Of a DNA stretch of 56,592 nt, positions 16,008-34,529 are shown in pieces. The notes under the pieces were generated by a model, which saw only the letters and a program-made list of their open reading frames with translations, was not told where the DNA came from and did no database searches. Position numbers and translations under genes: made by a program. Each line of letters begins with the position of its first letter. The stretch's first letter is position 1. This DNA comes from a virus (lineage: Duplodnaviria > Caudoviricetes), in IMG/VR virus record IMGVR_UViG_3300035666_000025, positions 1 through 56,592 of that record; one strand, 5' to 3'.

Positions 16008-16255
16008 TACACCGTCCTTGAATTAACCGCGCCAACCACTGCCGCGGCCCAATCCTGCCAGTTATCAAAGCCATAAGGCTCTGGTATAGCTTCATTGGCA
16101 AACACGTCGATAGCCTTCAAGCCAGCAGCCCAAGACTTCCATTCAACACCAGGACCTGGGATCTGCAACTGCTGGCCAGCATAAGCCTCGCACATGAGCG
16201 CCGCCCATGAATCAAAGTCTTGATACCGCGGGTCATAAACGACAGCCAAACTCAT
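16007..16255 (-). CDS. Conserved small structural-module protein
   Basis: W..WA...PEPYGFDNWQDWA motif; coupled overlaps. Confidence 0.7.
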   Translation of the reverse strand: MSLAVVYDPRYQDFDSWAALMCEAYAGQQLQIPGPGVEWKSWAAGLKAIDVFANEAIPEPYGFDNWQDWAAAVVGAVNSRTV

Positions 16256-20531: not shown

Positions 20532-20924
20532 TCACCACACCTTCTTTCTGATCGACTCAGGCTGGGGAACAAACTGCTTGCCTTGCCTCATCCCTTCACG
20601 CTTGGCACGCGTGGTCGCTGCATATTCAGACGGACTTAGCTTCTGTCTTGCAGCCTTGGGCAGGTAGCGTTCACCCGTTGCTTTAGGGCCTTGCGTGGAC
20701 GGTTTTCCAGACCTCGTTCCCCAGTCTTCTTTCGTCCACTTTGAAAGCGAATTATCCGCTTTTTTTGGACCTTTGTAACCCCCGCCCGAAGCTTTGTATT
20801 TCTGGGTAGCTAACTGCGCTTTGCGGGCGCTCCACTGGCCAGGATTACCACCTTTGCCCGAGGCTTTGACTGAGGCAACTATGCGCTTCCACTTGGCCGG
20901 ATCTGACTTGGTTGCTGAACTCAT
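20532..20924 (-). CDS. Small basic protein (DUF5872-like)
   Basis: GQWSARKAQL...YK..GGGY, W.KEDW.T, RYLPK motifs. Confidence 0.7.
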   Translation of the reverse strand: MSSATKSDPAKWKRIVASVKASGKGGNPGQWSARKAQLATQKYKASGGGYKGPKKADNSLSKWTKEDWGTRSGKPSTQGPKATGERYLPKAARQKLSPSEYAATTRAKREGMRQGKQFVPQPESIRKKVW

Positions 20925-21388
20925 CGCATTAACGCAGCTTCCGCCGCCCTCCTACGGGTTAGTCCTGGCAAAACCCTGCCAGCGGCTTTATTCCACAACA
21001 GACACTGATCGGCAGCGCCATTCCAATCGCCAGTATCAATGCGCTTTTTGAACGTGCTGATGCGGTAATTACCAAGCCCGCAGTTGTATGCCCAAGACGT
21101 GACTGCAGCCATACGCCTTGGCAGCGCTTTAGAGAGGCTTGGCGACATCTTTAACAAGCCACGCACGAAATACTCAACGTGATGATCCAGAGCGTCTTCG
21201 CACTGCTCTATGGTCCAAATGGTGCCAGGATTGATTTCTGGCCCTGTAGCACCCCAGCCTATGGTCCATGGATGTCCACGGGTACCAGGGTCAGGATAGG
21301 CTGTTACACGGCCATCAGGCAAGCGCTTTGCAAGCCCCTCGAAGGGCTTAATCAAGACATCCTTGCAAAGCTTCTTAGCCTCGTTCAC
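20921..21388 (-). CDS. Endolysin, GH24 lysozyme
   Basis: FEG...AYPDP...WTIGWG, SWAYNCG, GLTRRR.AE; probable GTG start at 21388. Confidence 0.9.
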   Translation of the reverse strand: MNEAKKLCKDVLIKPFEGLAKRLPDGRVTAYPDPGTRGHPWTIGWGATGPEINPGTIWTIEQCEDALDHHVEYFVRGLLKMSPSLSKALPRRMAAVTSWAYNCGLGNYRISTFKKRIDTGDWNGAADQCLLWNKAAGRVLPGLTRRRAAEAALMR

Positions 21389-21870
21389 GACTTGTTGTAC
21401 TTCTCGATAGACCGGCCAACAAACCAAAAAGTGAGCATCATATTGAGCATGGCGAAGTCATCCTCGTCATAACTCTTGATCAGCACCTCAGCCCAGTTAG
21501 CGTTAGTCTGGAAGGCAATCGTTAACCCAGCAACTTTGACGGCCACATAAACACCAAAAGCAATCCAAGTAAGACCGGGGCGGGTAATAGCAGTGATAAA
21601 AGAAGCGAACCAACCAGCCTCTTTTGCTGTTGCGGCCTGTTCCTTAAATGCTTCCTTAATCGTATCCATTTGCTGTATCGAGTAGTCAACATATTTTTCC
21701 TCCATCTTGAACTCGCCCCTCATTTTTTCGAGGTCGGTTTGGAGTTGGAACATGGATAGCTCGTGCTGGCGCTCGTTCTTCTTGTCGAGAAACTTCAAGA
21801 CTTCAGGGGCGAGCCTGAAGATGCCGCCAAAGATGGAGCCAAGTAAACCGCCCGAAAGAAGATCAAACAT
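21385..21870 (-). CDS. Putative holin (3TM/GTA-holin-like)
   Basis: RP.LTW...TFWFVGRS; hydrophobic helices; adjacent to endolysin. Confidence 0.65.
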   Translation of the reverse strand: MFDLLSGGLLGSIFGGIFRLAPEVLKFLDKKNERQHELSMFQLQTDLEKMRGEFKMEEKYVDYSIQQMDTIKEAFKEQAATAKEAGWFASFITAITRPGLTWIAFGVYVAVKVAGLTIAFQTNANWAEVLIKSYDEDDFAMLNMMLTFWFVGRSIEKYNKS

Positions 21871-21872
21871 AC

Positions 21873-22289
21873 TTACCCCTTTGCGGTAATCTGATCGGCA
21901 CCTTTCTTAACCGTCACCTTGGTGCCTTCTACATCAACCTGCATGGGTTGCTCGGCGCGGTCAAGCTTGTCAAGGCGGTGGATAAGATCCTTGATGACTT
22001 CAAACTCTGGCTTTTCCTGTTTAGCAGCAGTGCCAGCAATGCCATTTAGCATTTGAATGAGCGCAGTAAGTGAAGCACCAAGAAGACCCATAACAGCAGC
22101 AATTTTTTCGCCTTCTAAGAATAGAGACGCACCCACGCCCACGAGCACGATCAGGAAGATGTAAAGGAGACCGTCCTCACCAATCGCTTTGCCAGCGACT
22201 TCCTTGGCCGAATCTTGAGCCTTTAGCTCATCAAGCTTGATCCTGGCCTGAGCTTTTAGGACCGCCAACTCATGGGTCTTATCGTCCAT
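21873..22289 (-). CDS. Two-TM membrane protein (lysis module)
   Basis: Two hydrophobic helices. Confidence 0.65.
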   Translation of the reverse strand: MDDKTHELAVLKAQARIKLDELKAQDSAKEVAGKAIGEDGLLYIFLIVLVGVGASLFLEGEKIAAVMGLLGASLTALIQMLNGIAGTAAKQEKPEFEVIKDLIHRLDKLDRAEQPMQVDVEGTKVTVKKGADQITAKG

Positions 22290-22486
22290 TAGATACCCAG
22301 CAATTTCTTAACGAACATCGCTGCGACTCCTGGCCCAAGAAGCACAGCAGCAATCGTGATGTAAAGCAGCCACTCAATGTGACGCATGCGACGACTGCCA
22401 TCACCGAGGCGCTTTTCAATGTTCTCGTAACGCTGGGCGCAAATAGCCTCGTGAACAGAGAGGCGCTTATCCAAATCGTCGCTCAT
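22289..22486 (-). CDS. Coiled-coil plus TM protein (XhlA/holin-like)
   Basis: RLSVHEAICAQRY..I..RL and C-terminal TM helix. Confidence 0.7.
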   Translation of the reverse strand: MSDDLDKRLSVHEAICAQRYENIEKRLGDGSRRMRHIEWLLYITIAAVLLGPGVAAMFVKKLLGI

Positions 22487-22492
22487 GATTGA

Positions 22493-23194
22493 TCACCACT
22501 CTCCAGTCCAATGCCGCAAACCGTTAGCGGCGTAAAAATCACGTTTCATGCGCTCCCAGTCACCTGCGTACCCCTTAAATAGTGTGGTTTGATGGGGTGG
22601 ATTCTCTGGTATGCACTTAAGGCCTTCAACCATATTGATCGCGGCACGCATTTGCTCGAAGGCTTTCTCACCAGGATTGGTATCGATGATGCCGCCAAAT
22701 AATGTCTCTGTGATGGCATGCATGTAAGTCTGTGCGCCAAGGAAGTAAATGCTATCTGCTCCCGCTCGCCGGCGTGCAAGCCAGTGCCTAATGGCAGCGC
22801 GGTAGATTGGATTGTGCGGTGCGCTCAACATCATGTCATGCGAGAAATCAAAGTTTCTGCAGGTCGGCAAAACCTGGCGCGTCTTCTCGTCCACTATCGT
22901 CGATAAGGGCACATTGCAAAGCCTGTCGATGTCAACGTATAGGCCACCCTCTAAAAACATCTTGTAGAGCCGCCAAATGTCTGTCTTGGCCACAATATGC
23001 AAATCTTTGGCTAGCGCATAGTCCTCGGCCATCTTGTCTTGCAAGTAGGCGTCGATATCAGCATCGTCAGAGATCTGCAGCGCCCAATCAGGATTGAGAT
23101 CGACAAGCTTGCGCAGGCCATTAACGATCAAAGGCGACGTGCTCTCAAGCACCTGCTTATCGTTCCACGCCACATGAATGATCTTGGGAATCAT
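22493..23194 (-). CDS. Glycosyltransferase, GT32/OCH1-like DxD family
   Basis: MIPKIIH..W; D..R...[LM]...GGLYVDID. Confidence 0.85.
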   Translation of the reverse strand: MIPKIIHVAWNDKQVLESTSPLIVNGLRKLVDLNPDWALQISDDADIDAYLQDKMAEDYALAKDLHIVAKTDIWRLYKMFLEGGLYVDIDRLCNVPLSTIVDEKTRQVLPTCRNFDFSHDMMLSAPHNPIYRAAIRHWLARRRAGADSIYFLGAQTYMHAITETLFGGIIDTNPGEKAFEQMRAAINMVEGLKCIPENPPHQTTLFKGYAGDWERMKRDFYAANGLRHWTGEW

Positions 23195-24060
23195 TTTTTA
23201 GGCTCTGTAACCACAAGCGTCTTGAACCCCATCGCCTCACGGATCTTGGTAGCCGAGATTGAATGAATCGCATCATCAAAGGTCTCTTGCTCGATCTTGT
23301 AGCCCACATCACGGCCATAGGTGATGTTCACGATGTTGGGCACTAACTGGATCTCATACTGACCCTGGTAGAGCGGATCAAGATCGCGCCTGATGAAGTC
23401 CTTGACCTGCTCGGCAGCAAACGGATTGGAGCCATTCCAGCCTTGGCAGTCACGAATCTGAATCACTACCTGACCTGTCTTAGCAATCGCACGCTCAAAC
23501 AATGCACGGTGGCCAGGATGCCAGGGTTGCCAGCGACCAAGCATTTGCACGGTCTCTTTACGCCAATCAAACCGTGGCCGACGGCGGTCATTCAGGATAT
23601 GGTCGGCGATGAAGTCAGACCATTTATCAGCATCTTTTTCAGTGACACGAAAGTCGTAAACATCAGGTGGCACAAAAGCTTTGTTGGTATCTTCATAGCG
23701 ACCCGCATCGATGGTATCCATCCAGATAACCCAGTCGGCTTTGAAGTTGTGCCGCATCTCAGGCAGCGGTGCCACAAAGTCACAAATGACATAGTCAGCA
23801 TTCGACGAGAGTGCAAATTCAGCCATCCGTATTGACTGACGAATCCGGCCCTCACGGCTGAAGTCCCAGTCGTTATATTTCTTGCGAACTTCATCAGCGT
23901 TAAACCACTTGACCGTGGGGTGCCAATAAGTAGGCACCACTTCACACTGTGCAAGCTTTTCCACAGGGATGTCTGTACTGGCTTCCAAACGCTTTTTCAG
24001 TGCTTCAGCCATAAAGGTTTTGCCTGCTCCGGGCAGGCCCATGATGAGGATTTTTTTCAT
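23191..24060 (-). CDS. APS kinase-like domain fused to HxGH nucleotidyltransferase
   Basis: GLPGAGKT, NADEVR, DFSREGR, DFVAP; C-terminal GRWQPWHPGH and ISATKIR. Confidence 0.8.
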   Translation of the reverse strand: MKKILIMGLPGAGKTFMAEALKKRLEASTDIPVEKLAQCEVVPTYWHPTVKWFNADEVRKKYNDWDFSREGRIRQSIRMAEFALSSNADYVICDFVAPLPEMRHNFKADWVIWMDTIDAGRYEDTNKAFVPPDVYDFRVTEKDADKWSDFIADHILNDRRRPRFDWRKETVQMLGRWQPWHPGHRALFERAIAKTGQVVIQIRDCQGWNGSNPFAAEQVKDFIRRDLDPLYQGQYEIQLVPNIVNITYGRDVGYKIEQETFDDAIHSISATKIREAMGFKTLVVTEPKK

Positions 24061-24752
24061 GCGGCTAGTTGGTCGTTGCGATCTGTTTTTCGGCCATGCT
24101 TGGGGCGACCAAGGATGGTGGTTTCAGTCTTATCGGGTACATCCGTTGCATACACGCCCATTTGATGCACAGGAAAGATATCTGTGCGAAGCATAATATC
24201 TAACGGCACTGAAATGCCATATTTAATGGCATGTGCCAGCATGTTTTTGGCTACTGCTGGATCAATTGCATACGCATGAGCACGGCAAATGAAGTGATAG
24301 TTTGGGCCTTCACTTGCATGTGGTGGCGTTGGCATCACAGCCCAGCCCTGCTGCGTTTGCTCGTGACAACCTAGATAGCAAATCGAGTTGTAGACCGAGT
24401 GCTGCAAGTAAGGCTGAAGCATGACCGCATCATGCTCAAGGACCACAATCGGCTTATCTTGCTCCACGCACTTAGCCCACAAGCTTATGTGCGATAGCGC
24501 ACAGGCTACTTCACCGCGAGTCAGATAGTGATCCGTAACCTTGATCATGTTCATCACTTGACTGTGATGTGCCGGTGGCTTGATGGGATTTTCTAAGCCG
24601 TTATACGCGTCCCAAAACGCAAAAGGCATCCCAATGGATGCACATGATTTAGCAGCTTCATCAGCCTTGCGCTCCGAGGTTTCATGACCCTGGATACGGA
24701 TAATATAAGCCCGATCCACGGCCATGTCGTAGCTGAAAAACAGCGACTTCAT
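24057..24752 (-). CDS. Glycosyltransferase family 25
   Basis: LTRGEVACALSH..LW, VLEHDA, AHAY motifs. Confidence 0.85.
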   Translation of the reverse strand: MKSLFFSYDMAVDRAYIIRIQGHETSERKADEAAKSCASIGMPFAFWDAYNGLENPIKPPAHHSQVMNMIKVTDHYLTRGEVACALSHISLWAKCVEQDKPIVVLEHDAVMLQPYLQHSVYNSICYLGCHEQTQQGWAVMPTPPHASEGPNYHFICRAHAYAIDPAVAKNMLAHAIKYGISVPLDIMLRTDIFPVHQMGVYATDVPDKTETTILGRPKHGRKTDRNDQLAA

Positions 24753-25204
24753 GTGGGCTTAACAGGCCAGTCTAAACCATTAAAATCCACAATCGTTGGC
24801 AAGTCACGCAAGGCTTGGCGATAGGCCGTCCATTCTGCTGGTACGGCTTGTCCTGCTTCCAAAAACTTAATGATGACCCAATCCGTTTCGGCCAAACGGA
24901 AGTTGCGCTCAATGCGCCACAAACGCCATTTCTCGGCAAGCTCCGCATCAAGTTCTTCTTGCGTTTTTGGTCGAGCCGTCAATGTCCAAACAACATGATC
25001 TTCTTTGATCTCGTATGATTCGGACTCCCAAACTTCAAAACGCGTATCCATCGACTCGGGCTTAACTGACACAACAGGATACCAGCCCGATTTAATTAGT
25101 GCATTTTTGTCAGCGGCCCAATTTTCCATGCTTACAGGTAAACGCCCCGCTCCCTGTATTACCTTACCATTCTCAACCTTAACCCACAGATCTAATCCTG
25201 CCAT
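24749..25204 (-). CDS. Tail fibre assembly chaperone
   Basis: RN..L..TDW...W..YRQALRDLP...WP.KP. Confidence 0.85.
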   Translation of the reverse strand: MAGLDLWVKVENGKVIQGAGRLPVSMENWAADKNALIKSGWYPVVSVKPESMDTRFEVWESESYEIKEDHVVWTLTARPKTQEELDAELAEKWRLWRIERNFRLAETDWVIIKFLEAGQAVPAEWTAYRQALRDLPTIVDFNGLDWPVKPT

Positions 25205-26954
25205 GATGCACCTCGTTCAAATAGTCGCCAAGTGCAACGCGCACCTGATCAAAAACTTCCGTCCAGCTTTCATATTTGGTCTGTCTGAACAATCGAACCG
25301 AATCGTACCAAGGTACACGATCTCCTGGTAGTGCCCAGAGATAATAAGGAAGGATAGGAATCACAACCCAAGTGGGCACGCCCATCGCAGCCGATAGATG
25401 CGCCACCGATGTGCAAGATGATATAACTAAATCACAGCTTGCGGCCACCTCTTGCGTGTCAAGCCATGAGTCAAGCTTTGATTCTGCAATCCACTCAGGG
25501 CGATGCTGTGAACCCTCATCACGCTGCAACGAGACAAACTCAACGTCATAACCGTTGACAGCATTAAAGAGCAACTCAGGCGAAAAATACTTGCGGTGAT
25601 CATACTCAAAGTTAGGGTTGCCCTGCCAGCGTAAGCCAATACGAAACTTGGTTCGTGGCGCTTGTGGCCGTGGGATATAAGCACGCCCCCACACATCTTT
25701 GTATTCAATACCCAAAGGTATAGGTGCCGACATTCCTGGCACCCAAGCATGATGGTAAACACCTGGAGCGGCTTCATGTACTGCCACTGCACGCACATTC
25801 GGTATGGTGGCAAAGAGCGTTACAAGCTCAGGCGAGCAAGCCACAATCACTTGGCATTTACGCGCTGTAATGTCTTGCACAAAGCGCATCTGATGGATCT
25901 GATCGCCTAAGCCACCTTCTAAGTAAAGCAGCACAATTTGATCCGATTGACCTTCCCAGATCGGCGTAGGCACTTGGGGCTTGGCATTACCAAAAACTTG
26001 CTCAATACGACCCCTTGCAAGCAATTGCATGCCCTCTTGGAGCCTGCCCTGCATCAGCACATACAAGCCTCGGTTATAGGCTGCACGATGGTTTTGTGGC
26101 TCAGTGCGCTCAAGCTGTTGAGCTATTTCCCAAGCCTTCTGGAAATCACCCCTGCGTCCTGCTTCGAGTTGCAGATCCAACGGCTGCTTGGGCATGGACT
26201 CTTGAGTCTCACCTAGCCAAAAGCGCGGCTGGTTGAACTCGTTATAACGATGACCCAAGACTTCTTGTGCGGTTTGTTTGTGCTGACGCTCAAGCTTAGG
26301 TTTAATGTCATGCAAGCCTGGAATGCCCCACACCTCATCGTCTTTCTCAGCAACAATCGAGCCTTCAATCTTCTCTAGGTTGTAGGCAAAAGGATCAAGC
26401 TCTAAGAAGTCATGGATGCGTTTGAGTTGCACCTCTGGATCAGCAAGCAGGTCTTCGTATTCAATCATGCAAAAGGACAGTGGATCTTCCAACATGCCTG
26501 CATGCAACGTCACATAGCCGGTTTTGACGACATTGATCAGGTGCGTTTCTGACAAGAACTTTTGCGTGTCTTCAGGCTTTACGACTCGCACAAAGGAGGC
26601 AATGCAGTCAGGTACATTTCTAACAGTGGCGATGATCTTAGGACGCTGCCCAAGCACCTTGGCCATCGTTTTCATGATGGGCGGTGCAGGCCAGCCACGA
26701 TTCTTATCGATGATGATGGGCTTTTGAATGGTCTCGTTTTTAGCCTGCATCAAACCACGAAGCATGCGGACCATATCATCGTCATTGCGGCCTTGAACGT
26801 GAATCGACTCATCACGCTCCCACTTCTCAGCCACAGCACCCATGATGCTAATTAGCCCTGATGTTGGCGTCACATGCACCAGAGGGTTTTGGTTCAGGAT
26901 CGCGGCAAGTACCGTTGATCCAGAGCGTGGTAAGCCAGATAGGAAATGCATCAT
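25179..26954 (-). CDS. Sulfotransferase-TPR-GT9-like glycosyltransferase fusion
   Basis: GLPRSGST (PAPS loop), DKNR, VRN...IAS, YEDL; TPR-like helix pair; GLGD, DLVISSCTSVAHL.AAMG.PTW, WY.SVRLFRQ. Confidence 0.85.
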   Translation of the reverse strand: MMHFLSGLPRSGSTVLAAILNQNPLVHVTPTSGLISIMGAVAEKWERDESIHVQGRNDDDMVRMLRGLMQAKNETIQKPIIIDKNRGWPAPPIMKTMAKVLGQRPKIIATVRNVPDCIASFVRVVKPEDTQKFLSETHLINVVKTGYVTLHAGMLEDPLSFCMIEYEDLLADPEVQLKRIHDFLELDPFAYNLEKIEGSIVAEKDDEVWGIPGLHDIKPKLERQHKQTAQEVLGHRYNEFNQPRFWLGETQESMPKQPLDLQLEAGRRGDFQKAWEIAQQLERTEPQNHRAAYNRGLYVLMQGRLQEGMQLLARGRIEQVFGNAKPQVPTPIWEGQSDQIVLLYLEGGLGDQIHQMRFVQDITARKCQVIVACSPELVTLFATIPNVRAVAVHEAAPGVYHHAWVPGMSAPIPLGIEYKDVWGRAYIPRPQAPRTKFRIGLRWQGNPNFEYDHRKYFSPELLFNAVNGYDVEFVSLQRDEGSQHRPEWIAESKLDSWLDTQEVAASCDLVISSCTSVAHLSAAMGVPTWVVIPILPYYLWALPGDRVPWYDSVRLFRQTKYESWTEVFDQVRVALGDYLNEVHHGRIRSVG

Positions 26955-28732
26955 GCAGGACTTATCGTATTACTAATCGCAGCGAATCCACAGGTATTTG
27001 AGATTTGAAGAGGGGTAGCACTGCCCGTCACCGGACCCCAGGTTGTCAATGCTCCAACTTGTGATGGCGAAGACCTTGATACATAGTTATTCAGTCCTAA
27101 GTTTCCATTTCCATTTGCACCCCATGTCCATAAAGTTCCATTGGTTCGTAATGCAGCGCTTGCCGTGCTTCCTGCCGAACTAATCCACCAATCAGTTAAT
27201 GCACCTATTTGTTTTGGGGAAGTCAAATTGGAGCCATAACCATAGGTGTTATTTAACCCCAACTGCCCGTTTACATTCAGTCCCCAGCACCATAAGGTGC
27301 CATCAGTTTTAACGGCCAAACAATGATAACTACCAGGGCTTACTGTTCGCCAATCAGTTAAAGCGCCAATCTGTACTGGTGAAGAAGTATTATTGCCAGG
27401 GTTGCTCGCAACCATGCCGTAATTGTTACCAGTATTTCTCCCCCACGCCCAAAGCGTTCCGTCCGTTTTTATAGCGAAAACATTGGCACAGCCAGCTAGG
27501 GAATTATTCCTTGAGGTTCTAACAGAACTCCAAGTTGTTAATGCCCCTATTTGAACTGGTGATGAAACATTACCTGTATTGTTTGTGCCAAGAGCGCCAT
27601 AAGCATTAGATCCCCATCCCCATAACGTGCCGTTTGTTTTAATAGCAAAAGTATTGCCACGACTTGTTGTCACTTTACTCCAATCTGTACCTGACCCTAT
27701 TTGTACTGGAGAAGATCTATTTTGCGCCTGACCGTCACCAAGGCGTCCATGAGCACCACCTCCCCATGTCCATAAGGTGCCGTCCGTTTTAATTGCTGCG
27801 CTGCTGCCGTAGCCAACTGATATTTGTGACCAATTTGTTAATGAACCCACTTGAGTGGGGGAAGATACGGCTGTAGACGTTTGATTAAGTCCGAGCGCTC
27901 CTGAGAGAACATCTCCCCAAGCAAAAAGTTGCCCGGCGGTATTTATAGCAAGCGTAGGAACTGAGAAATTGCCTATGTCATACCAATTTGCCAATGACCC
28001 AATCTGTACGGGTGAATTTGTGCTTGTTGTGTTATTTAAGCCTAGCTGACCTACACCATTTGCACCAAATGCGTATAACCTTACTTCTGTCCCTCCGGGA
28101 ATTGTTGCCTCTACCCATCCACGCCATTTAGTACCACCGTCTGTGGTGAGCAGCGCAATGACCGTCACGCCGTTTGCGCCGGTAGCTAATGTTGGTGCTG
28201 TTTGTGCCGTAGAAGTCGTTGTGGCTGCATACTGCCCGCTCCAATACACTGAGTTTGGCCAAGCAATCGTATAAGCCGTGCCATCCGAGGCGTTCTTTAC
28301 TACGATCTGAATCAAAATCGGCGTGCCGCTTGCAGGCACGTTGGTAAAGGACAGCGTGGCAATGCTTGCTGCCATCGTCAGATCGATGACGTTGCCGCTG
28401 TTTAAGTTAATCGTTGTGGTGGCCGATGACGTTACCGCTTGGCGAGTGTTATTGGTGAGAGCGCCTGCAGTAACTGACCCGAAACTTAAAACACCGCCGC
28501 CATTTGTTGTCAAAAACTGGCCGCTCGTACCGTCCGCTGTTGGATATTTAAGCTCTGCAGGATTATTAAAGAAGCGCTTAACTGTACCCGACGCGTTCTC
28601 GAAGTACATACTCATATCGTTGTCAGCAATATTCAGCGCCACTTCGCCAGGCGACAGGTTCGCGTTACTTGGCAAAGCTCCTGATGTTGTGCTGCGATAA
28701 AGCTGAATGGGTGTGTAATTCGTTGCTGGCAT
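26951..28732 (-). CDS. Receptor-binding fibre with RCC1/BLIP-II beta-propeller
   Basis: N-terminal IQLYRSTT..LP....L..GEVALN docking domain; about seven AIKTDGTLW.WG....G.LG...SSPVQIG..T.W repeats. Confidence 0.85.
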   Translation of the reverse strand: MPATNYTPIQLYRSTTSGALPSNANLSPGEVALNIADNDMSMYFENASGTVKRFFNNPAELKYPTADGTSGQFLTTNGGGVLSFGSVTAGALTNNTRQAVTSSATTTINLNSGNVIDLTMAASIATLSFTNVPASGTPILIQIVVKNASDGTAYTIAWPNSVYWSGQYAATTTSTAQTAPTLATGANGVTVIALLTTDGGTKWRGWVEATIPGGTEVRLYAFGANGVGQLGLNNTTSTNSPVQIGSLANWYDIGNFSVPTLAINTAGQLFAWGDVLSGALGLNQTSTAVSSPTQVGSLTNWSQISVGYGSSAAIKTDGTLWTWGGGAHGRLGDGQAQNRSSPVQIGSGTDWSKVTTSRGNTFAIKTNGTLWGWGSNAYGALGTNNTGNVSSPVQIGALTTWSSVRTSRNNSLAGCANVFAIKTDGTLWAWGRNTGNNYGMVASNPGNNTSSPVQIGALTDWRTVSPGSYHCLAVKTDGTLWCWGLNVNGQLGLNNTYGYGSNLTSPKQIGALTDWWISSAGSTASAALRTNGTLWTWGANGNGNLGLNNYVSRSSPSQVGALTTWGPVTGSATPLQISNTCGFAAISNTISPA

Positions 28733-28765
28733 GTCTATCTCCGCGAAACGGTGAGTTGCATCATT

Positions 28766-29224
28766 TTAAGCCGCCTTGTCTAAGTGCAAAAGCCCTTTTA
28801 GGGCTTCTAAAACGACTTCTGGCGCGACAAATTTGTTGGGGTCATGCTCATAGCACTCCCACCACAAAAACTGATTCTGAGCGAGATTGGCTCGGTCCTT
28901 GAGCAGGTTGATGTTCTCTGGGTGACCAAAGATCTGCGGGTCCGATACCGACCAAAGCACAATGCCTGGTTTGCCCTCATCCCACCCCAAGTGCTGCATG
29001 AAGCTATCGCACGCAATCCATGTCGTGCATTGCCTCACTAACTGGCGCAGCGCTTGAATGGGCAGGTTCTTGCGAAAGTCTGGCACGATTTGCTGCTCAC
29101 CCTCAACGCCCACCTGAATAACCGGATTAGGCAAGTGCGGGATCAGCGCCTCCCAAAACGGATAGTCCTTGGGATTGCGCTTGCCGTTATTAAGCTTCTT
29201 AGCAAAGGGCGCTATCAAAATCAT
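28766..29224 (-). CDS. GT9-like glycosyltransferase, C-terminal half
   Basis: KDYPFW, IQVG, IACDSFMQH, GIVLW, FGHPENINL. Confidence 0.75.
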   Translation of the reverse strand: MILIAPFAKKLNNGKRNPKDYPFWEALIPHLPNPVIQVGVEGEQQIVPDFRKNLPIQALRQLVRQCTTWIACDSFMQHLGWDEGKPGIVLWSVSDPQIFGHPENINLLKDRANLAQNQFLWWECYEHDPNKFVAPEVVLEALKGLLHLDKAA

Positions 29225-30189
29225 AGGTACATCTTCCTGTAAGCACCTTCCAAGCTTGTCTTCCACTTCCAGCGGTCCATCTTGGCATAGATGTTATACA
29301 TCTCGATGTCGCCAAATAAGTCTCTGGCCTCAGCAATCGACCTGCAGGGAAGGATCTCAGGATAGCAGCCAAACACCAACGGGTTCTTAATCTCAGGCAA
29401 GACATGCGTAAATACGATGTGATCGCCCATGCCGTTGTTGAGCACCACAATCGTGTGGTTCTTGTGCGCTAGCGTGTTGCGGAAGATCTGCTCGTCATGC
29501 GCAAACATCTCTTGCTTATCTTCCATGCGGATACCGCCAGACGGCGCTTTAAGGTGCCAGGTTACTGCGTTGGGCACGACCAACAAGTCATAGCCCTTTT
29601 GCTTTAAGCCAAAGCTGAAAAGCGTCTCTTCGCGGTGGGCGACTCGAGACAGACCTAAGTTGTAGTCATAAATCCCTGCGCGATACAGAAAGCTGCAATG
29701 CAAGTGGTCTACATGCTTGACCTTCTTGATGCGCTGCCATTGCGGATGTGGCTCGTGGTCAATCGCATCGATTTTGCCGGTAGGATTGGCTTCTTCAAAG
29801 TAGTGCGGTGGCATGAGCACTGAGCCACCCACACCGCCTACCATCGGGCCTGTATGCGCTAGCAAGACCTCAAGCACGTTTGGCTCAGGAATGGCGTCAT
29901 CATCCACGCGCCACACCCAATCAAAGCCCATGCAGTTGGCCATTTGATGATTGTGATGCTGGCCCTTCTTGCCGGCCCAGATCCACTCCCAAGCAATCTG
30001 CTTGGCATCCATCATCCAATACAAGTTCTTGTATATCGGATCGCTACGCAGGTCTTGATTCTCGTCGTTATCATCAAAGATCACGATCTTTTCTGGCTTG
30101 CGGGTTTGGTTCATAACCGCCTGCAAAGCCAAAGGCAGTGTCGTATGTGACCGCCCCCTGGTAGAGACTGAGCACAAAACGCTAGGCAT
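29221..30189 (-). CDS. GT2 glycosyltransferase fused to GT9-like N-terminal segment
   Basis: QTRKP..IVIFDD, WRVDDD, REET; C-terminal NGMGDH. Confidence 0.8.
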   Translation of the reverse strand: MPSVLCSVSTRGRSHTTLPLALQAVMNQTRKPEKIVIFDDNDENQDLRSDPIYKNLYWMMDAKQIAWEWIWAGKKGQHHNHQMANCMGFDWVWRVDDDAIPEPNVLEVLLAHTGPMVGGVGGSVLMPPHYFEEANPTGKIDAIDHEPHPQWQRIKKVKHVDHLHCSFLYRAGIYDYNLGLSRVAHREETLFSFGLKQKGYDLLVVPNAVTWHLKAPSGGIRMEDKQEMFAHDEQIFRNTLAHKNHTIVVLNNGMGDHIVFTHVLPEIKNPLVFGCYPEILPCRSIAEARDLFGDIEMYNIYAKMDRWKWKTSLEGAYRKMYL

Positions 30190-31471
30190 GCCAGCGTCCA
30201 ATCAGCAAGTTGAGCCTGTTTTGATCGTCAATCGGCTTGGGCACGGCTGAGATATTGCCCTGCTCATCGATGTAGTTGAACTCAAAGCCAGGAAAGTGCG
30301 ACTCATTCAAACCATGCAATTTGTGATGCGGACCCCAAAAGCCTACTGGCTCATTCATGGGTACGGTAAAGAGTAAGGTCTTGCAGTGCTGCTTGAGCTT
30401 TTGCAAGACTTCCAGGCCGTTATCAAGGTGCTCAATGACCTCGAAAGCGATGATCGTGTCGTACTGCTGCAGGTCATACTTGTTGATATCGGCATGCACA
30501 AACTGCGCCTTGGCACTCCATCCCTGCTCCTTGGCCACGTCCACAATGATCGGATCGTAATCAAGGCCTGTGTATTCCACGCCTTCAGGCATGAACTGCA
30601 CGCCATAACCGCTTGAGCAGCCAAGCTCAAAGACGCTCTTGCCCCTCACATGCTGCGCTGCCCACTGATAGCGCGTCACTTCCCGCGGGAAGACCGGGTC
30701 ACCCTTCAGAAAAACAGCACGCTCCCAATAGTTGGATAAGCGCCAGCGATACCAGTCTGGGTTGAACTTCTTGGCAAGCTTGAGCGAGTTGCGCAGGAAC
30801 ACATCGTTGTAGTCAGGCACAAGCGATGTATCAAGCATCGTGCCCTCGCCCTTGTGATAGATCGGAAACGCGCCGGTAAACTGATTGCCGCTCCACTCCT
30901 TGGGCGAGCATTCATGCACCTCAAAGCCTGCCATTTCAGCCTGAATGCAGAATTCGGTATCTTCACCGCCGCCAATGCCGTATTCGGTATTTAATAACCC
31001 AATTCGGTTAAATACACTGCGCCTGATCATCACGCAGAAGAACACCGCAAAGTCACGGCCTGCAGGCTCTGATGGTCCCTTGATCACGCATGAAATGCCG
31101 CACTTCTCGTGATGCGCAAATGGCTGGTTGAGCATGTCTAGCCACTGGCTCTTATTCTGCGGCAGCAGGACTGTGTCGTTGTTGAGCAGCACGATGCGGT
31201 CTGTGCGCGTGGCTACAATCCCTGCATTGCATGCGCCTGAATAGCCTAGCGGCTGATCGCTCCAAACAACCTTGATGTGCTTATCAAAGCCAATGCTTGC
31301 AAAGCGAGCCGATAGCTCTTGCAGGTAAGCCTGTGTGCCGTCTGTGCAGCCGTTGGCCGAAATGACCAACTCAACATCGGCCATGTCGGTGAACTTGAAG
31401 ATGGACTCAAGACAAGGTTTGAGCAGATCCTCGCAGTGGTTGTAGGTCGGGATAACAATGCTGTAGCGCAT
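30182..31471 (-). CDS. GT2 glycosyltransferase-SAM methyltransferase fusion
   Basis: SIVIPTYN, LLNNDT, GEDTEF; ELGCSSGYG, GLDYD, FEVIEHL. Confidence 0.9.
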   Translation of the reverse strand: MRYSIVIPTYNHCEDLLKPCLESIFKFTDMADVELVISANGCTDGTQAYLQELSARFASIGFDKHIKVVWSDQPLGYSGACNAGIVATRTDRIVLLNNDTVLLPQNKSQWLDMLNQPFAHHEKCGISCVIKGPSEPAGRDFAVFFCVMIRRSVFNRIGLLNTEYGIGGGEDTEFCIQAEMAGFEVHECSPKEWSGNQFTGAFPIYHKGEGTMLDTSLVPDYNDVFLRNSLKLAKKFNPDWYRWRLSNYWERAVFLKGDPVFPREVTRYQWAAQHVRGKSVFELGCSSGYGVQFMPEGVEYTGLDYDPIIVDVAKEQGWSAKAQFVHADINKYDLQQYDTIIAFEVIEHLDNGLEVLQKLKQHCKTLLFTVPMNEPVGFWGPHHKLHGLNESHFPGFEFNYIDEQGNISAVPKPIDDQNRLNLLIGRWHA

Positions 31472-33108
31472 TAGAACGTACCGCCATCAATACCGCCTGT
31501 GATTGCATTTGTGCTGCCGTTAACTGACAAGCCCGCATCGACTAAGACAGCCTGGCTACCAGTGGTTGAGGCCGCGGCAAACAAGATAAAGCCCGCCGAT
31601 GTGCTTGCGGTTGTGGTGACGTTAGTCGGTGGCGCTCCTGAGAATCCACTGATACCTGATGCACCGCTAAAGCCAGACACGCCTGAGCCGCTGAATCCTG
31701 ACCGGCCCGAGAATCCAGAGAACCCTGAGATACCAGAAAAGCCGGAGATTCCACTAAAGCCCGAGATACCACTAAAACCAGAAATGCCCGAAAACCCTGA
31801 TCGTCCACTAAAGCCTGAGAACCCGGAAATTCCTGAGAAGCCAGAGATCCCAGAAAAGCCTGATGTACCAGAAAACCCGCTGATACCAGAGCCGGAAAAG
31901 CCAGAGATGCCCGAGCCAGAAAAACCAGAGATGCCACTAAATCCTGATATACCCGAGAAGCCAGAAATGCCCGAGAAGCCGGATATGCCACTGAACCCTG
32001 AGATACCGCTAAAGCCTGAGATGCCAGAGAATCCGCTGATGCCAGAGAACCCGCTGAATCCTGAATAGCCACTGATACCGCTTTGTGCTACGCCATCAAG
32101 GCCTGAGTAACCTGAGAATCCGCTAAAGCCTGACAGGCCTGAGTAGCCTGAAATGCCGCTGAATCCAGAGATACCGGAGAATCCCGAAATGCCTGAATAG
32201 CCACTAAATCCGCTAAAACCAGAGACGCCTGAGCCTGAAAAGCCAGAGGTGCCACTGTAGCCAGAGATGCCAGAAAAGCCTGATGTGCCGCTATAGCCTG
32301 AGATGCCACTGAATCCAGACGTGCCGCTAGCACCGGATATGCCAGAGCCTGAGAAGCCAGAAAAGCCAGAGTAACCCGACGTGCCACTGTAGCCCGATAG
32401 GCTTGTCCATGCGCCAGCAACAACACCTTCGTAGATTCCTAAATCCGTGTTGTAGCGGATCATCCCATTCTGCGGCGAGGAACGCTGTACTGTCGTGCCA
32501 GCAGGGATCTGCACTGACCCCGTGCCTGGTAACACCGGGTTATCGGCTATGCCTACTGTCGGGTTCGCAGCATCACCCGTGCCGTTGAGCACATCAATCT
32601 CATTGGTTGTGCCCTGTAGCGTTACTACCGCAATCGAATTGCCTGAAGTGCGTGCAATCAAGCCGGTGCCTGAAGACAGCGCCAGATCTAATACAAGACC
32701 TGACAGCAGCACTGTCGGGTTGCCTGCAATTCCATCGCCATCGGTAACGCTTAAACCTGTCGTTCCAGCTTGAATAGAGCGGTTTGTAAGCGTTGTGCCG
32801 TTAGTCTTGACCTGGATACCAGCCGACGAGTTTACGAGGCTTGCAGGCGCTCCTGCCAAGGCTATAGCCATGGTTGAGCCGGCACCGTTGTCGGTAACCG
32901 TAATGCCACCGCCCGTGGTCGTTAATTGCCTAGCATCGGTCAGCGTGCCCTCTGATGTGGCCGTGATAAAGCTGTAGTTAGTAACAGGCACCGCAGAAAT
33001 AGCGCCTGTAGTCGTTTGGACAGTTTGACCACCCTGAACGATAGGGACCAACTCTGAGCCAGTAAGTGCGCCTGCTGCTGGTAATTGGGTAATGGTTTGA
33101 TTAGCCAT
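31471..33108 (-). CDS. Fibre protein with (Gly-X-Ser)n collagen-like tract, ending in GGIDGGTF
   Basis: ITQLP..L.G.E.VPIVQ.G.T N-terminus; PAGTT.QR...GMIRYN; about 255-aa SG[FIY] repeat. Confidence 0.85.
   Translation of the reverse strand: MANQTITQLPAAGALTGSELVPIVQGGQTVQTTTGAISAVPVTNYSFITATSEGTLTDARQLTTTGGGITVTDNGAGSTMAIALAGAPASLVNSSAGIQVKTNGTTLTNRSIQAGTTGLSVTDGDGIAGNPTVLLSGLVLDLALSSGTGLIARTSGNSIAVVTLQGTTNEIDVLNGTGDAANPTVGIADNPVLPGTGSVQIPAGTTVQRSSPQNGMIRYNTDLGIYEGVVAGAWTSLSGYSGTSGYSGFSGFSGSGISGASGTSGFSGISGYSGTSGFSGISGYSGTSGFSGSGVSGFSGFSGYSGISGFSGISGFSGISGYSGLSGFSGFSGYSGLDGVAQSGISGYSGFSGFSGISGFSGISGFSGISGFSGISGFSGISGFSGISGFSGISGFSGSGISGFSGSGISGFSGTSGFSGISGFSGISGFSGFSGRSGFSGISGFSGISGFSGISGFSGISGFSGFSGRSGFSGSGVSGFSGASGISGFSGAPPTNVTTTASTSAGFILFAAASTTGSQAVLVDAGLSVNGSTNAITGGIDGGTF
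31637..32400 (-). repeat. Coding tripeptide repeat (Ser-Gly-X)n, X mostly F/I/Y
   Basis: Roughly 80-85 SG units with diverse synonymous codons. Confidence 0.95.
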
Positions 33109-33458: not shown

Positions 33459-34529
33459 TCAGGACGTGTATGGCATGATGTTGGGTGCAAAGTAGATCGG
33501 TGAACGATCACGCTCTTCTTGCTCAACTTCATTGAGGTACTTTGTGGCCTGCGCTTCGAGGTACTGCACACGATCTAACGGCACCTGCGGCAACTCAAGC
33601 GATAGTTGATGACTGAGCATGGCAACCGTGGCCAGATACCAGCGCTGCGGGATCTGTAGCTCGTCAGTCAGATCGCCCACATCCATAATCTGCTTGGAAT
33701 ACCAGACCGTCATTTGAATAAATGGGTCATTAGGCGTGGGCCAGAGGTAAATTTCAGGCTGTGGAATCGTGCGGTTGAACCAAAACTGATACGGTTGATT
33801 GGCCGTAAAGTTTTTATTCGGCAGATTGGTGTAATCATCACGATTTAGGCGTGACATTGTGATTTCTCGGCTGTTATTGCCGACATACCACTCTCTTAAC
33901 GCCAGTGTCGTGCCACCAGAAGCCCTAATACGGTAAAACTGCACCGTTTGGCCAGGGTCAATGTCATACCAGAGCCACTGATTGTCCGTTACAACGACGG
34001 TACCGACGTTTTCAAGCGTATTCCAGGTGGCACCATCCGTGGAATACTCAAGAGTGAAGGTCCAGGTGGCACTTCCACCGCCAGAAACATAGGGCAGCAC
34101 GCCAATAGATCCTGCATAAACCGGGTTGTCGGTCCCAAAATCGACTGAAATGTTGCCATTGGCACTCGTTTGCTGGCAGTAAGTGTCTACGTCGTTATCA
34201 GCAACAAAAGATACCGTGCCCCCTGCGCTCGTAGCGTAGTTGCCCGAGGGGCGGTTCATGGTGCGATAGAGCGCATTCAGCACGTCATTAGCGCCAACAG
34301 GCAGCGAGTAGATGTATTTATCCACTGACAGGCCGATAACTTCCTTCTTGATCGCCCAATACTGGATGCCAATGTTGATCAGGCTTGATAACGTCATGCC
34401 TAAGATCTCTCTTGCGGCTACCAACTGCTCGCTGGTTAGCTCTTCTGCTAACTTGCCGCAACGACGCGCTGCGTGGTCAATCAGCGTTTGGACGTTATAA
34501 ACCTGGCCGTAAGTATCTGAATATGCCAT
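33459..34529 (-). CDS. Head-tail adaptor with inserted beta-sandwich domain
   Basis: Adaptor pattern (RLNRDDY.NLPNK...P.QFWF.R...LWP.P) interrupted by LEYSTDG.TW...FYRIR domain. Confidence 0.7.
   Translation of the reverse strand: MAYSDTYGQVYNVQTLIDHAARRCGKLAEELTSEQLVAAREILGMTLSSLINIGIQYWAIKKEVIGLSVDKYIYSLPVGANDVLNALYRTMNRPSGNYATSAGGTVSFVADNDVDTYCQQTSANGNISVDFGTDNPVYAGSIGVLPYVSGGGSATWTFTLEYSTDGATWNTLENVGTVVVTDNQWLWYDIDPGQTVQFYRIRASGGTTLALREWYVGNNSREITMSRLNRDDYTNLPNKNFTANQPYQFWFNRTIPQPEIYLWPTPNDPFIQMTVWYSKQIMDVGDLTDELQIPQRWYLATVAMLSHQLSLELPQVPLDRVQYLEAQATKYLNEVEQEERDRSPIYFAPNIMPYTS

Follow-up and report, generated by a model that had tools for sequence, protein, structure and literature searches.

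A ten-gene block in a phage genome joins two tail fibres with glycosyltransferases, a sulfotransferase and a putative supplier of its sulfate donor

The IMG/VR virus record IMGVR_UViG_3300035666_000025, a member of the Caudoviricetes, is a complete record consisting of a single contig of 56,592 bp (CheckV rating, 100% complete), and the whole of this stretch is referred to here as the window. Ten co-oriented open reading frames (ORFs) on its minus strand occupy positions 22493-33108, between a tail-adaptor-like gene and the lysis genes (Table 1), and it is this block of fibre, chaperone and enzyme genes that is analysed below. An earlier note, made from the sequence alone, had read the ten genes as one pathway that builds a sulfated, methylated, proteoglycan-like glycan on a fibre rich in Ser-Gly. 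The block itself is as that note described it: all ten ORFs are present on the minus strand at those positions, Pfam and PHROGs bear out the list, and the enzyme identities hold in per-domain Pfam, profile and structure searches, with the second family 2 glycosyltransferase (GT2) borderline and the small GT9-like protein weak. The block is composed of two separable cassettes, namely cassette A, which runs from a collagen-like fibre gene through three enzyme genes, and cassette B, which begins with the gene for a fibre bearing an RCC1-type propeller; most relatives in other viral contigs carry A without B, or B without A.

From the collagen-like fibre gene onward, the nine gene junctions of the block measure -1, -20, -4, +33, -4, -26, -4, -4 and -4 nt, and the sole non-overlapping one (+33 nt) separates the small GT9-like gene from that of the RCC1 fibre, where the two cassettes meet. 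Promoter-like sites (10, against 15.5 in shuffled sequence) and terminator-like sites (23, against 17.9) were neither of them above the shuffled expectation, and no internal transcription units could be defined. By hydropathy, none of the enzymes of the block has a hydrophobic segment resembling a membrane span.

Table 1. Genes of the block, its boundaries and related fused ORFs (L numbers designate individual loci found in the searches described in the text)
Feature	Positions	Strand	Basis
Collagen-like tail fibre, 545 aa	31471..33108	-	Pfam Collagen PF01391, E 2.4e-32; PHROG tail fibre families
GT2 (residues 4-116) and S-adenosylmethionine (SAM)-dependent methyltransferase (about 273-373) fusion, 429 aa	30182..31471	-	Pfam
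GT-A/GT2-like enzyme with C-terminal extension, 326 aa	29221..30201	-	Borderline Pfam GT2 (26.6 bits, cut-off 27)
Small protein like the GT9 C-terminal nucleotide-sugar-binding half, 152 aa	28766..29224	-	Weak Pfam GT9 (E 5e-3, below cut-off)
Tail fibre with C-terminal RCC1-type beta-propeller, 593 aa	26951..28732	-	WD40_RLD, E 2.5e-86; RCC1 in 7 stretches
Sulfotransferase (1 to about 250)-TPR (about 258-316)-GT9/TibC-type GT-B (about 335-591), 591 aa	25179..26954	-	Pfam, AlphaFold2 (AF2), Foldseek against PDB and BFVD
Tail fibre assembly chaperone, 151 aa	24749..25204	-	Phage_tail_APC, E 5.7e-14; PHROG tail fibre assembly
GT25 glycosyltransferase, 231 aa	24057..24752	-	Pfam, E 1.4e-19, 71.2 bits, cut-off 24
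APS-kinase-like P-loop kinase (1 to about 160) and small HxGH / ISxTxxR nucleotidyltransferase (about 165-289), 289 aa	23191..24060	-	Profile search, AF2, Foldseek
GT32-like DXD glycosyltransferase, 233 aa	22493..23194	-	Gly_transf_sug PF04488, 28.9 bits, cut-off 23
Upstream boundary: 356-aa structural protein	33459..34529	-	Synteny with the "tail adaptor" gene of the closest phage record
Downstream boundary: two small membrane proteins, holin-like protein, endolysin	20921..22486	-	PHROGs, hydropathy
Fused cassette A ORFs in other contigs	L282:9897-12659 (920 aa, all three); L244:5633-7618 (661 aa); L257:13989-15752; L258:13856-16948		

The fibre of cassette A contains, between residues 236 and 505, 85 SG dipeptides that correspond to 81 Gly-X-Y triplets, 78 of which are G-X-S, with Phe (35), Ile (23), Tyr (8) and Thr (5) the common residues at X. 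The triplets form runs of 5, 12, 16, 18, 2, 22 and 6, with five two-residue GS interruptions. As is the case for collagens, Gly recurs at every third residue over long runs; Pro or hydroxyproline and the charged X and Y residues that stabilise a collagen helix are largely missing, the same 270 residues having one Asp, no Glu, two Arg and two Pro, both of the latter in a GAPP run that comes after the last G-X-S triplet. The glycosaminoglycan attachment site of proteoglycans is a Ser-Gly with acidic residues nearby, and its use depends on a xylosyltransferase and on linkage-region transferases. The comparison with such sites, on which the earlier note had leaned, does not survive, since the repeat is of a collagen type with hydrophobic residues at X and a single acidic residue in 270, and since the transferases found by Pfam are of the GT2, GT9-like, GT25 and GT32 types only, with no family of the glycosaminoglycan type among them. 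Two further ORFs, 31499-32068 on the plus strand (189 aa) and 31542-32072 on the minus strand (176 aa), lie in other frames within the repeat; their translations are rich in Pro and Glu or in Ser, Ala and Leu, and most likely they arise from the repetitive character of the DNA and are not genes.

Three enzyme genes follow this fibre. The first (30182-31471) matches the Glycos_transf_2 family of Pfam at E 2.4e-18 and several SAM methyltransferase models at E about 1e-10. Its methyltransferase half (30182-30850) shares 59% identity with a hypothetical protein of Methylophilaceae phage P19250A, which is the only match of this gene in a cultured phage besides a weak GT2 match. In the second enzyme (29221-30201), R98 and the residues D100-D102 of a DDD motif are invariant, and a profile of it found no relative in the PDB. 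The third gene is given in the ORF listing as 28766-29266, from a GTG; its start is probably at 29224, for a product of 152 aa, because the stop of the preceding gene overlaps an ATG there (ATGA). A 17-sequence profile of this small protein has as its five best PDB matches WaaC, a GT9 protein and WaaF, at E 0.014-0.39. The overlap of the second and third genes, which places them in a -1 frame relation, is kept in 33 of 33 related loci. A programmed frameshift was considered here and rejected in favour of ordinary ATGA coupling, and what had been called a split GT9-like enzyme is a pair of translationally coupled genes, the N-terminal partner having no significant match and the C-terminal one being only weakly GT9-like. 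When aligned by hhalign with the family of the 591-aa enzyme of cassette B, neither ORF matched it (probability 3.7 for the small GT9-like ORF and 0.6 for the GT2-like one). Elsewhere, the enzymes of cassette A occur as single ORFs of 587-1030 aa in which two or all three are fused (Table 1).

The trio formed by these enzymes is found across many viral contigs in a recurrent arrangement. A search of viral contigs with the GT2-methyltransferase fusion brought up 36 loci; the fusion gene is followed by the second GT2-like gene in 35 of them, by the small GT9-like one in 32 and by an RCC1 gene in 30, and where one of these is missing, the locus ends within ~3 kb past the last matched gene. Runs of G-X-S are encoded upstream in 20 of the 36, the remaining 16 all having <4.9 kb of upstream sequence, and all ten loci with at least 4.9 kb upstream carry such runs (10/10). 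Fourteen of the loci pass directly from the RCC1 gene to a small membrane protein gene and lysis genes, and in these the sulfotransferase, chaperone, GT25, kinase and GT32 genes are absent.

The reciprocal search, with the fibre repeat alone as the query, found at least 507 relatives, and 78 loci were analysed. Homologues of the trio (37-81% identity) are present in 32 of them. Among the 47 loci with at least 3 kb of downstream sequence, the trio lies no more than 3.5 kb downstream of the fibre in 19 and elsewhere in the locus in four more (23/47), and after dereplication it is present in 26 of 53 clusters and in 20 of the 34 clusters with at least 3 kb downstream. In 21 of the 32 loci that have the trio, none of the structural or lysis genes is shared with the window. 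The notion that every G-X-S fibre has transferases of its own was rejected, as 46 ORFs downstream of trio-less fibres gave zero glycosyltransferase matches in Pfam; their matches included Collagen (6), Laminin_G_3 (5), the S74 chaperone (4), 2-oxoglutarate (2OG)-Fe(II) oxygenases and one sulfotransferase. A trio that always stands beside a G-X-S fibre where this can be checked, and a fibre that is often found without the trio, make up the pattern that is expected if the fibre is the substrate of the enzymes. The linkage of the transferase trio, with its methyltransferase, to the G-X-S fibre makes fibre-linked glycosylation well supported by comparative evidence. The earlier note had put forward as a check the co-occurrence of repeat fibres with the sulfotransferase and the APS kinase; kinase or sulfotransferase homologues are present in only 2 of the 78 loci. 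Some viral contigs encode giant G-X-S fibres of up to 3371 aa and 732 triplets (L221:2682-12797; also L288, L237 and L247), and in L221 and L224 a sulfotransferase ORF lies about 2.7 kb downstream of the giant fibre.

Cassette B begins with the RCC1 fibre, residues 92-208 of which match a PHROG tail fibre family, and its most distinctive member is the enzyme of 591 aa. Pfam recognises Sulfotransfer_3 and Sulfotransfer_1 (PF13469 / PF00685) in this protein at 59.5 and 43.3 bits, above their cut-offs, together with TPR, and the AF2 model has a mean confidence score (pLDDT) of 92.1. With the N-terminal 250 residues, Foldseek retrieved tyrosylprotein, CurM and heparan-sulfate sulfotransferase structures that had been solved with 3'-phosphoadenosine 5'-phosphate, the best matches being human TPST2 and TPST1 at E 3e-7; the TM-scores are indistinguishable, however, at about 0.52 for TPST, 0.48 for CurM and 0.47-0.53 for heparan-sulfate 3-O-sulfotransferases. 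The residues L8-P9-R10-S11-G12-S13-T14, R112 and S120 show little or no variation across 36 sequences, and we take them to be the loops that bind 3'-phosphoadenosine 5'-phosphosulfate (PAPS). By profile, fold and 5'-phosphosulfate-binding loop, the domain belongs to the family of PAPS-dependent sulfotransferases. The C-terminal 260 residues have TibC, WaaF, WaaC and the GT9 protein 3tov as Foldseek matches (E 4e-6 to 2e-4); Pfam GT9 does not match the protein, so that its GT9-like fold is visible by structure only, and a single-sequence phmmer search of the PDB returned only TPR and marginal TPST matches.

More than 1092 proteins have this three-domain architecture, and RCC1 proteins occur alongside the TPR-GT9-like part in 31 of 34 loci. 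A scan of cellular contigs for the full fusion returned contigs of metagenome-assembled genomes with mutually inconsistent taxonomy and one 5.4-kb contig from an isolate assembly, which we regard as phage contigs; outside phage-like contigs, the three-domain enzyme is all but absent. Tandem arrays of two to four RCC1 fibre paralogues are common, with the gene for the sulfotransferase-TPR-GT enzyme in their middle (L002:4262-7768, L003:6552-10004, L073, L093 and L040). Homologues of the sulfotransferase domain alone (about 30% identity) do occur in true bacterial chromosomes, where in 19 loci (L151-L211) they adjoin a 587-aa PEP-CTERM protein (for example L162:9962-10840, with a neighbour like L173:109-1872), a position that hints at a role linked to secreted proteins or extracellular polysaccharide (EPS) for these bacterial relatives.

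The fusion protein of 289 aa was described in the earlier note as an APS kinase fusion, that is, a kinase for adenosine 5'-phosphosulfate (APS) joined to a further domain. An APS-kinase-like domain is indeed present, and the partner can now be named as a small nucleotidyltransferase of the HxGH type. The single sequence offers thin evidence, Pfam giving APS_kinase PF01583 at 27.2 bits (cut-off 21.1) and a weak CTP_transf_like match. In a search of the PDB with a 46-sequence profile of the family, the top ~25 matches are APS kinases (E 5e-15 to 1e-10), with shikimate kinase at 1e-4, and with the AF2 model (pLDDT 92.6) APS kinases take 15 of the 17 first Foldseek ranks, including rank 1. The P-loop and the APS-binding core block of these kinases are present, and K14 (the P-loop Lys), R59 and F67, which are invariant in the family, are located within the stretch aligned to the APS kinase core. 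The domain is short of a full-length APS kinase, in that the Pfam match covers positions 35-93 of 152 with no single stretch passing, the PDB alignments stop near profile residue 95, and the usual lid segment is missing.

The second domain of the fusion has the motifs GRFQPFHxGH, YGRDVGY and ISATxIR, and its HPGH and GRDVGY motifs may be equivalents of the HxxH and GRD-type loops of ATP sulfurylase. HxGH and ISxTxxR are accompanied by only three predicted strands (AF2), Foldseek aligns no more than 79-138 columns, and positions ~147-220 of the same profile match archaeal nicotinamide mononucleotide (NMN) adenylyltransferases at E 1.6e-11 to 1e-9. Among 26 relatives of this domain, four match Pfam ATP-sulfurylase weakly, with a best E of 1.1e-3 that is below the cut-off; in the window, Pfam ATP sulfurylase (PF01747) has zero matches at E up to 1. 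The fusion family has 2011 representatives at E up to 1e-3, and kinase-only and transferase-only forms exist as well. One relative, P0239 (311 aa), has an N-terminal domain that is 44% identical over 113 residues (E 1e-36) to residues 167-279 of the window protein, and what follows that domain is a complete APS kinase of the canonical type (E 5.7e-63 to PF01583, matched over positions 2-151 of 152). P0239 represents a cluster of seven members on several contigs, which their sources name adenylyl-sulfate kinase. Because its domain order is the reverse of that in the window, the small transferase is joined to APS kinases in either order, which parallels the place of ATP sulfurylase in PAPS synthases. 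From these features, the 289-aa fusion likely converts APS to PAPS and might also make APS from sulfate.

The kinase and the sulfotransferase are linked well beyond the window. A kinase query over viral contigs met at least 587 encoding stretches, 80 loci were kept and the 77 new ones among them were analysed; one of these, L019, is on the same contig as a locus found through the sulfotransferase, and some are near-duplicates, so that dereplicated counts are given as well. A sulfotransferase, scored as a domain-profile match within 5 kb of the kinase, is present in 47 of the 77 loci, on the same strand in all and upstream in 46, and the median gap is 1.07 kb. Of the 45 loci that have at least 6 kb upstream, 33 are positive, and 18 of the 30 negative loci have <6 kb there. 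With kinases clustered at 95% identity, 34 of 56 clusters are positive, as are 26 of 37 among those with long flanks. In the control, which consisted of the 78 fibre-repeat loci with an equal total length (1.0 Mb), the sulfotransferase profile matched 2. The contrast of 47/77 with 2/78 sustains the proposal of the earlier note that the sulfotransferase is supplied by an APS kinase. Kinase identity holds at 73-95%, whereas that of the partner sulfotransferases falls from 98% to as low as 23%. The pair occurs in the window's own lineage and in T4-like contigs, which are ordered fibre genes, sulfotransferase, kinase, neck proteins, small and large terminase, and sheath, and in which the intervening genes are not orthologous; they include a GT2-methyltransferase fusion, GT9-like, GT4 and GT2 transferases, Methyltransf_24, an FkbM/RfbT-type methyltransferase, a carbamoyltransferase and a nucleotidyltransferase-cupin. 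A functional coupling of the sulfotransferase with a dedicated enzyme of the APS-kinase type, and with it PAPS-dependent sulfation, is well supported by this comparative evidence.

Across the window at large, the genes include those for a T4-type large terminase, a major head protein, large proteins of the ejection type, an SLT transglycosylase and a lysis cassette. No integrase, resolvase, Wzx-type flippase or initiating Bac_transf transferase is detectable across the complete 56,592-bp record, and there are no tRNA genes in the window. A megablast search of the block against 50,697 phage records gave zero matches. The closest deposited genome is that of the uncultured spring phage MW202545 (67% identity in the large terminase, TerL), followed by Caulobacter phages (TerL 40%). 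In MW202545, two large fibre/spike genes stand where the window has the block, with the "tail adaptor" gene on one side and the lysis genes on the other, so that the block takes the place of an exchangeable receptor-binding cassette. Elsewhere in the window, at 44246-49198 on the minus strand, a protein of 1650 aa has an ADP-ribosyltransferase domain of the "polyvalent protein" type (E 1.6e-9) and adjoins an 855-aa protein without a family match; the former is probably ejected or borne in the virion.

What has been observed directly is which domains the proteins have, how the operon is laid out and which genes keep company in many viral contigs; to this we add the inference that the fibres are acceptors, that Ser is the attachment site and that PAPS is the product of the kinase. 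We consider it about an even call that the block consists of two adjacent cassettes, each made up of a fibre and its own modifying enzymes, with the fibres of the virion as the target. The setting would be a late tail-fibre operon of a lytic freshwater phage. The soluble GT2-methyltransferase, GT2-like and GT9-like-half enzymes of cassette A would work as one multi-enzyme, and their product would be an O-glycan, short and methylated, attached to Ser residues of the G-X-S fibre. In cassette B, the sulfotransferase-TPR-GT9-like, GT25 and GT32 enzymes would build and sulfate a glycan on the RCC1 fibre, or sulfate hydroxyls directly, and they may also act on the product of cassette A. The 289-aa fusion would make the sulfate donor PAPS inside the infected cell.

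Virion fibres are favoured as the target because the enzymes are soluble and are encoded in a late operon, interleaved with the fibres and a fibre chaperone, because the phage lacks an integrase and export functions, and because the associations follow fibre types and not phage lineage. The confinement of the three-domain enzyme essentially to phage-like contigs argues in the same direction, as does the presence among the nearest folds of the 591-aa enzyme of the protein modifiers TPST1/2 and TibC, although these matches are not exclusive. Several observations weigh against fibre modification as the function. GT9, GT25 and GT2 are families typical of the lipopolysaccharide (LPS) core, and soluble enzymes could modify host intermediates that are linked to lipid at the inner membrane; protein and carbohydrate sulfotransferases are not told apart by the Foldseek scores; and since roughly half of the loci with a G-X-S fibre lack a nearby glycosyltransferase, the fibre does not need the trio. 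As regards the kinase, 12 loci with at least 6 kb upstream have no sulfotransferase and place the gene among unrelated metabolic genes such as those for PhoH, dCMP deaminase and GTP cyclohydrolase I, and among the neighbours (42 ORFs) in ten of these 12 and in L034 no sulfotransferase was found among the best 25 of 57 families. In cultured phages, the 12 records that match the sulfotransferase and the 15 that match the kinase do not overlap, and Xylella phage Sano (L095, record 11616-16143) has a 40%-identical kinase homologue in its early region. Genes annotated as a cysteine dioxygenase and a MazG-like pyrophosphatase lie in the same region of Sano, which has no annotated sulfotransferase.

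The explanation that best survives beside this one is remodelling of the host envelope, in which sugars, methyl groups and sulfate would be placed on LPS core, O-antigen, capsule or EPS, either to block superinfection or to keep progeny from sticking to debris, and the fibres would be mere neighbours in a hypervariable island. It has a good deal to draw upon. GT9, GT25 and GT2 are classic families of LPS and lipooligosaccharide synthesis, as their Pfam descriptions and the WaaC and WaaF fold matches indicate, related loci encode the FkbM/RfbT-type O-antigen methyltransferase and the carbamoyltransferase, sulfotransferase-only homologues are present in bacterial chromosomes, and bacteria are known to make sulfated LPS and Nod factors with a dedicated sulfotransferase and a PAPS supply. 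We nevertheless hold envelope remodelling to be possible and somewhat unlikely. The genes belong to a late structural operon and are translationally coupled to those for the fibres and the chaperone, lysogenic seroconversion is unlikely because there is no integrase, and neither a flippase nor an initiating transferase is encoded in the complete record; furthermore, the trio is found only beside G-X-S fibres wherever this can be tested, and the full sulfotransferase-TPR-GT fusion occurs almost only on phage-like contigs.

A narrower alternative concerns the acceptor of the sulfate, which might be a hydroxyl of the protein itself, Tyr or Ser of the fibre, as it is for tyrosylprotein sulfotransferases. 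The human enzymes are the best Foldseek matches of the domain, the fibre repeat has eight G-Y-S triplets, and sulfated collagen-like and tail-collar proteins have been predicted in bacteria (Iyer et al. 2010, PMC2938197). The TM-scores of TPST, CurM and 3-O-sulfotransferase are indistinguishable, however, and an enzyme that is fused to one glycosyltransferase and surrounded by others fits a sugar acceptor, so that direct sulfation of protein is in our estimation distinctly unlikely. The single pathway of the earlier note, by which all ten genes would make one sulfated, methylated glycan on the Ser-Gly fibre in the manner of a proteoglycan, strikes us as decidedly improbable. The cassettes are adjacent and co-transcribable in the window phage and in at least eight related loci, the 145-kb contig behind L055 and L246 has both, and L221 and L224 have their sulfotransferase downstream of a giant fibre; against this stand the near absence of sulfation genes from the G-X-S loci, the many close relatives that keep cassette A and the RCC1 fibre without sulfation genes and run from that fibre into the lysis genes, the +33 nt junction that separates the cassettes, and the lack of acidic flanks and of glycosaminoglycan-type transferases. 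It is very improbable that the 289-aa fusion is an enzyme of nucleotide or NAD salvage (a kinase with an NMN adenylyltransferase) and that the sulfotransferase draws on host PAPS, in spite of the likeness of the C-terminal half to archaeal enzymes of that kind, the 12 loci among nucleotide-metabolism genes, and the early-region homologues of Xylella and Stenotrophomonas phages that sit beside an annotated gene of the COG3236/GTP-cyclohydrolase-II type in records without a sulfotransferase match, in that APS kinases outrank all other kinases in the profile and fold searches, the invariant K14, R59 and F67 lie within the block aligned with the APS kinase core, linkage to sulfotransferases is tight and on the same strand, and P0239 joins the same nucleotidyltransferase domain to a canonical APS kinase.

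The decoration of a phage's own fibres with glycan and sulfate has, to our knowledge, not yet been shown for any phage. In the literature on phage and cyanophage sulfotransferases or adenylylsulfate kinases, we found no module of sulfotransferase and kinase, no phage PAPS supply, no link to fibres and no module of a G-X-S fibre with transferases, and no such module was found in that on virion glycosylation, glycosylated collagen-like tail fibres and RCC1 tail fibres. In other work, cysC is listed as an auxiliary gene of large freshwater phages, and phage sulfotransferases were called functionally unclear in 2023. The block is thus best placed with phage-encoded glycan decoration of the virion or another surface, and its enzyme architecture for PAPS supply is possibly new. 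At a minimum, the sulfotransferase and the APS-kinase fusion make up a widespread module that is embedded in fibre cassettes, and the three enzymes that follow G-X-S fibres form a unit apart from it. Should fibres be the targets, coats of glycan, methyl groups and sulfate on receptor-binding proteins would bear on host range, virion stability and the stickiness of particles in lakes. The small kinase-nucleotidyltransferase fusion could, in addition, serve as a compact PAPS-regenerating enzyme of practical use. A bolder proposal, which we offer tentatively and judge rather unlikely in its entirety, is that in freshwater phages of more than one morphotype, virus-encoded enzymes sulfate the glycosylated receptor-binding fibres of the phage itself, with the 289-aa protein as a minimal PAPS synthase that fuels the reaction; in it, the truncated HxGH nucleotidyltransferase of ~120 aa, in place of a canonical ATP sulfurylase, would adenylylate sulfate and the lid-less APS kinase would finish the synthesis. 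If true, this would be the first phage virion to be sulfated through the phage's own genes, and a route to PAPS that is new and far smaller.

Among known systems, the virion proteins of mycobacteriophages are glycosylated by phage-encoded glycosyltransferases (Freeman et al. 2023, Cell Host Microbe, as cited in PMC12619734). The likeness, as that account gives it, lies in glycosyltransferase genes that stand beside structural genes; the glycans there are on the C-termini of capsid and tail-tube subunits, whereas the candidates in the window are collagen-like and RCC1 fibres known from genes alone, and the sulfotransferase and PAPS supplier are extra in the window. Iyer et al. 2010 (PMC2938197) predicted bacterial operons in which collagen-like/tail-collar proteins are hydroxylated and then sulfated by co-encoded sulfotransferases with PAPS synthetases, and which also combine methyltransferases with hydroxylases and sulfotransferases. 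The window shares with these a sulfotransferase and a dedicated source of PAPS next to collagen-like or fibre-like proposed substrates. Those operons are bacterial, rely on 2OG-Fe(II) hydroxylases to create the hydroxyl and do not emphasise glycosyltransferases, whereas the window has a phage structural operon with five or six glycosyltransferases and no hydroxylase.

The bifunctional PAPS synthases (1x6v, 2gks and 3cr8) resemble the 289-aa fusion in joining an APS-kinase-type domain to a nucleotidyltransferase of the HxxH type, and both domain orders are again represented, by the window protein and P0239; the fusion differs from them in a nucleotidyltransferase of about 120 aa that is nearest to NMN adenylyltransferase and has no Pfam ATP-sulfurylase match, and in its lid-less kinase. 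The TibC/AAH heptosyltransferases of bacterial autotransporters (4rap and 4rb4) glycosylate Ser residues of a repetitive surface protein. TibC, with its GT-B fold of the GT9 type, is the best glycosyltransferase fold match of the 591-aa enzyme, at 13% identity, and the phage enzyme adds TPR and sulfotransferase domains to it. Glycosylated proteins of a collagen-like kind include Bacillus BclA, with its GXT repeats, the Thr-galactosylated cuticle collagen of a vent worm and the collagen of Mimivirus. In these, a hydroxy-amino acid in a Pro-poor triplet is the site of the sugar, as is proposed here for the G-X-S fibre, and these precedents suggest by analogy that Ser-linked sugars may stabilise a triple helix poor in Pro. 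The G-X-S fibre is unlike them in having Ser at Y and aromatic or aliphatic residues at X, in the families of its accompanying enzymes and in belonging to a tailed phage.

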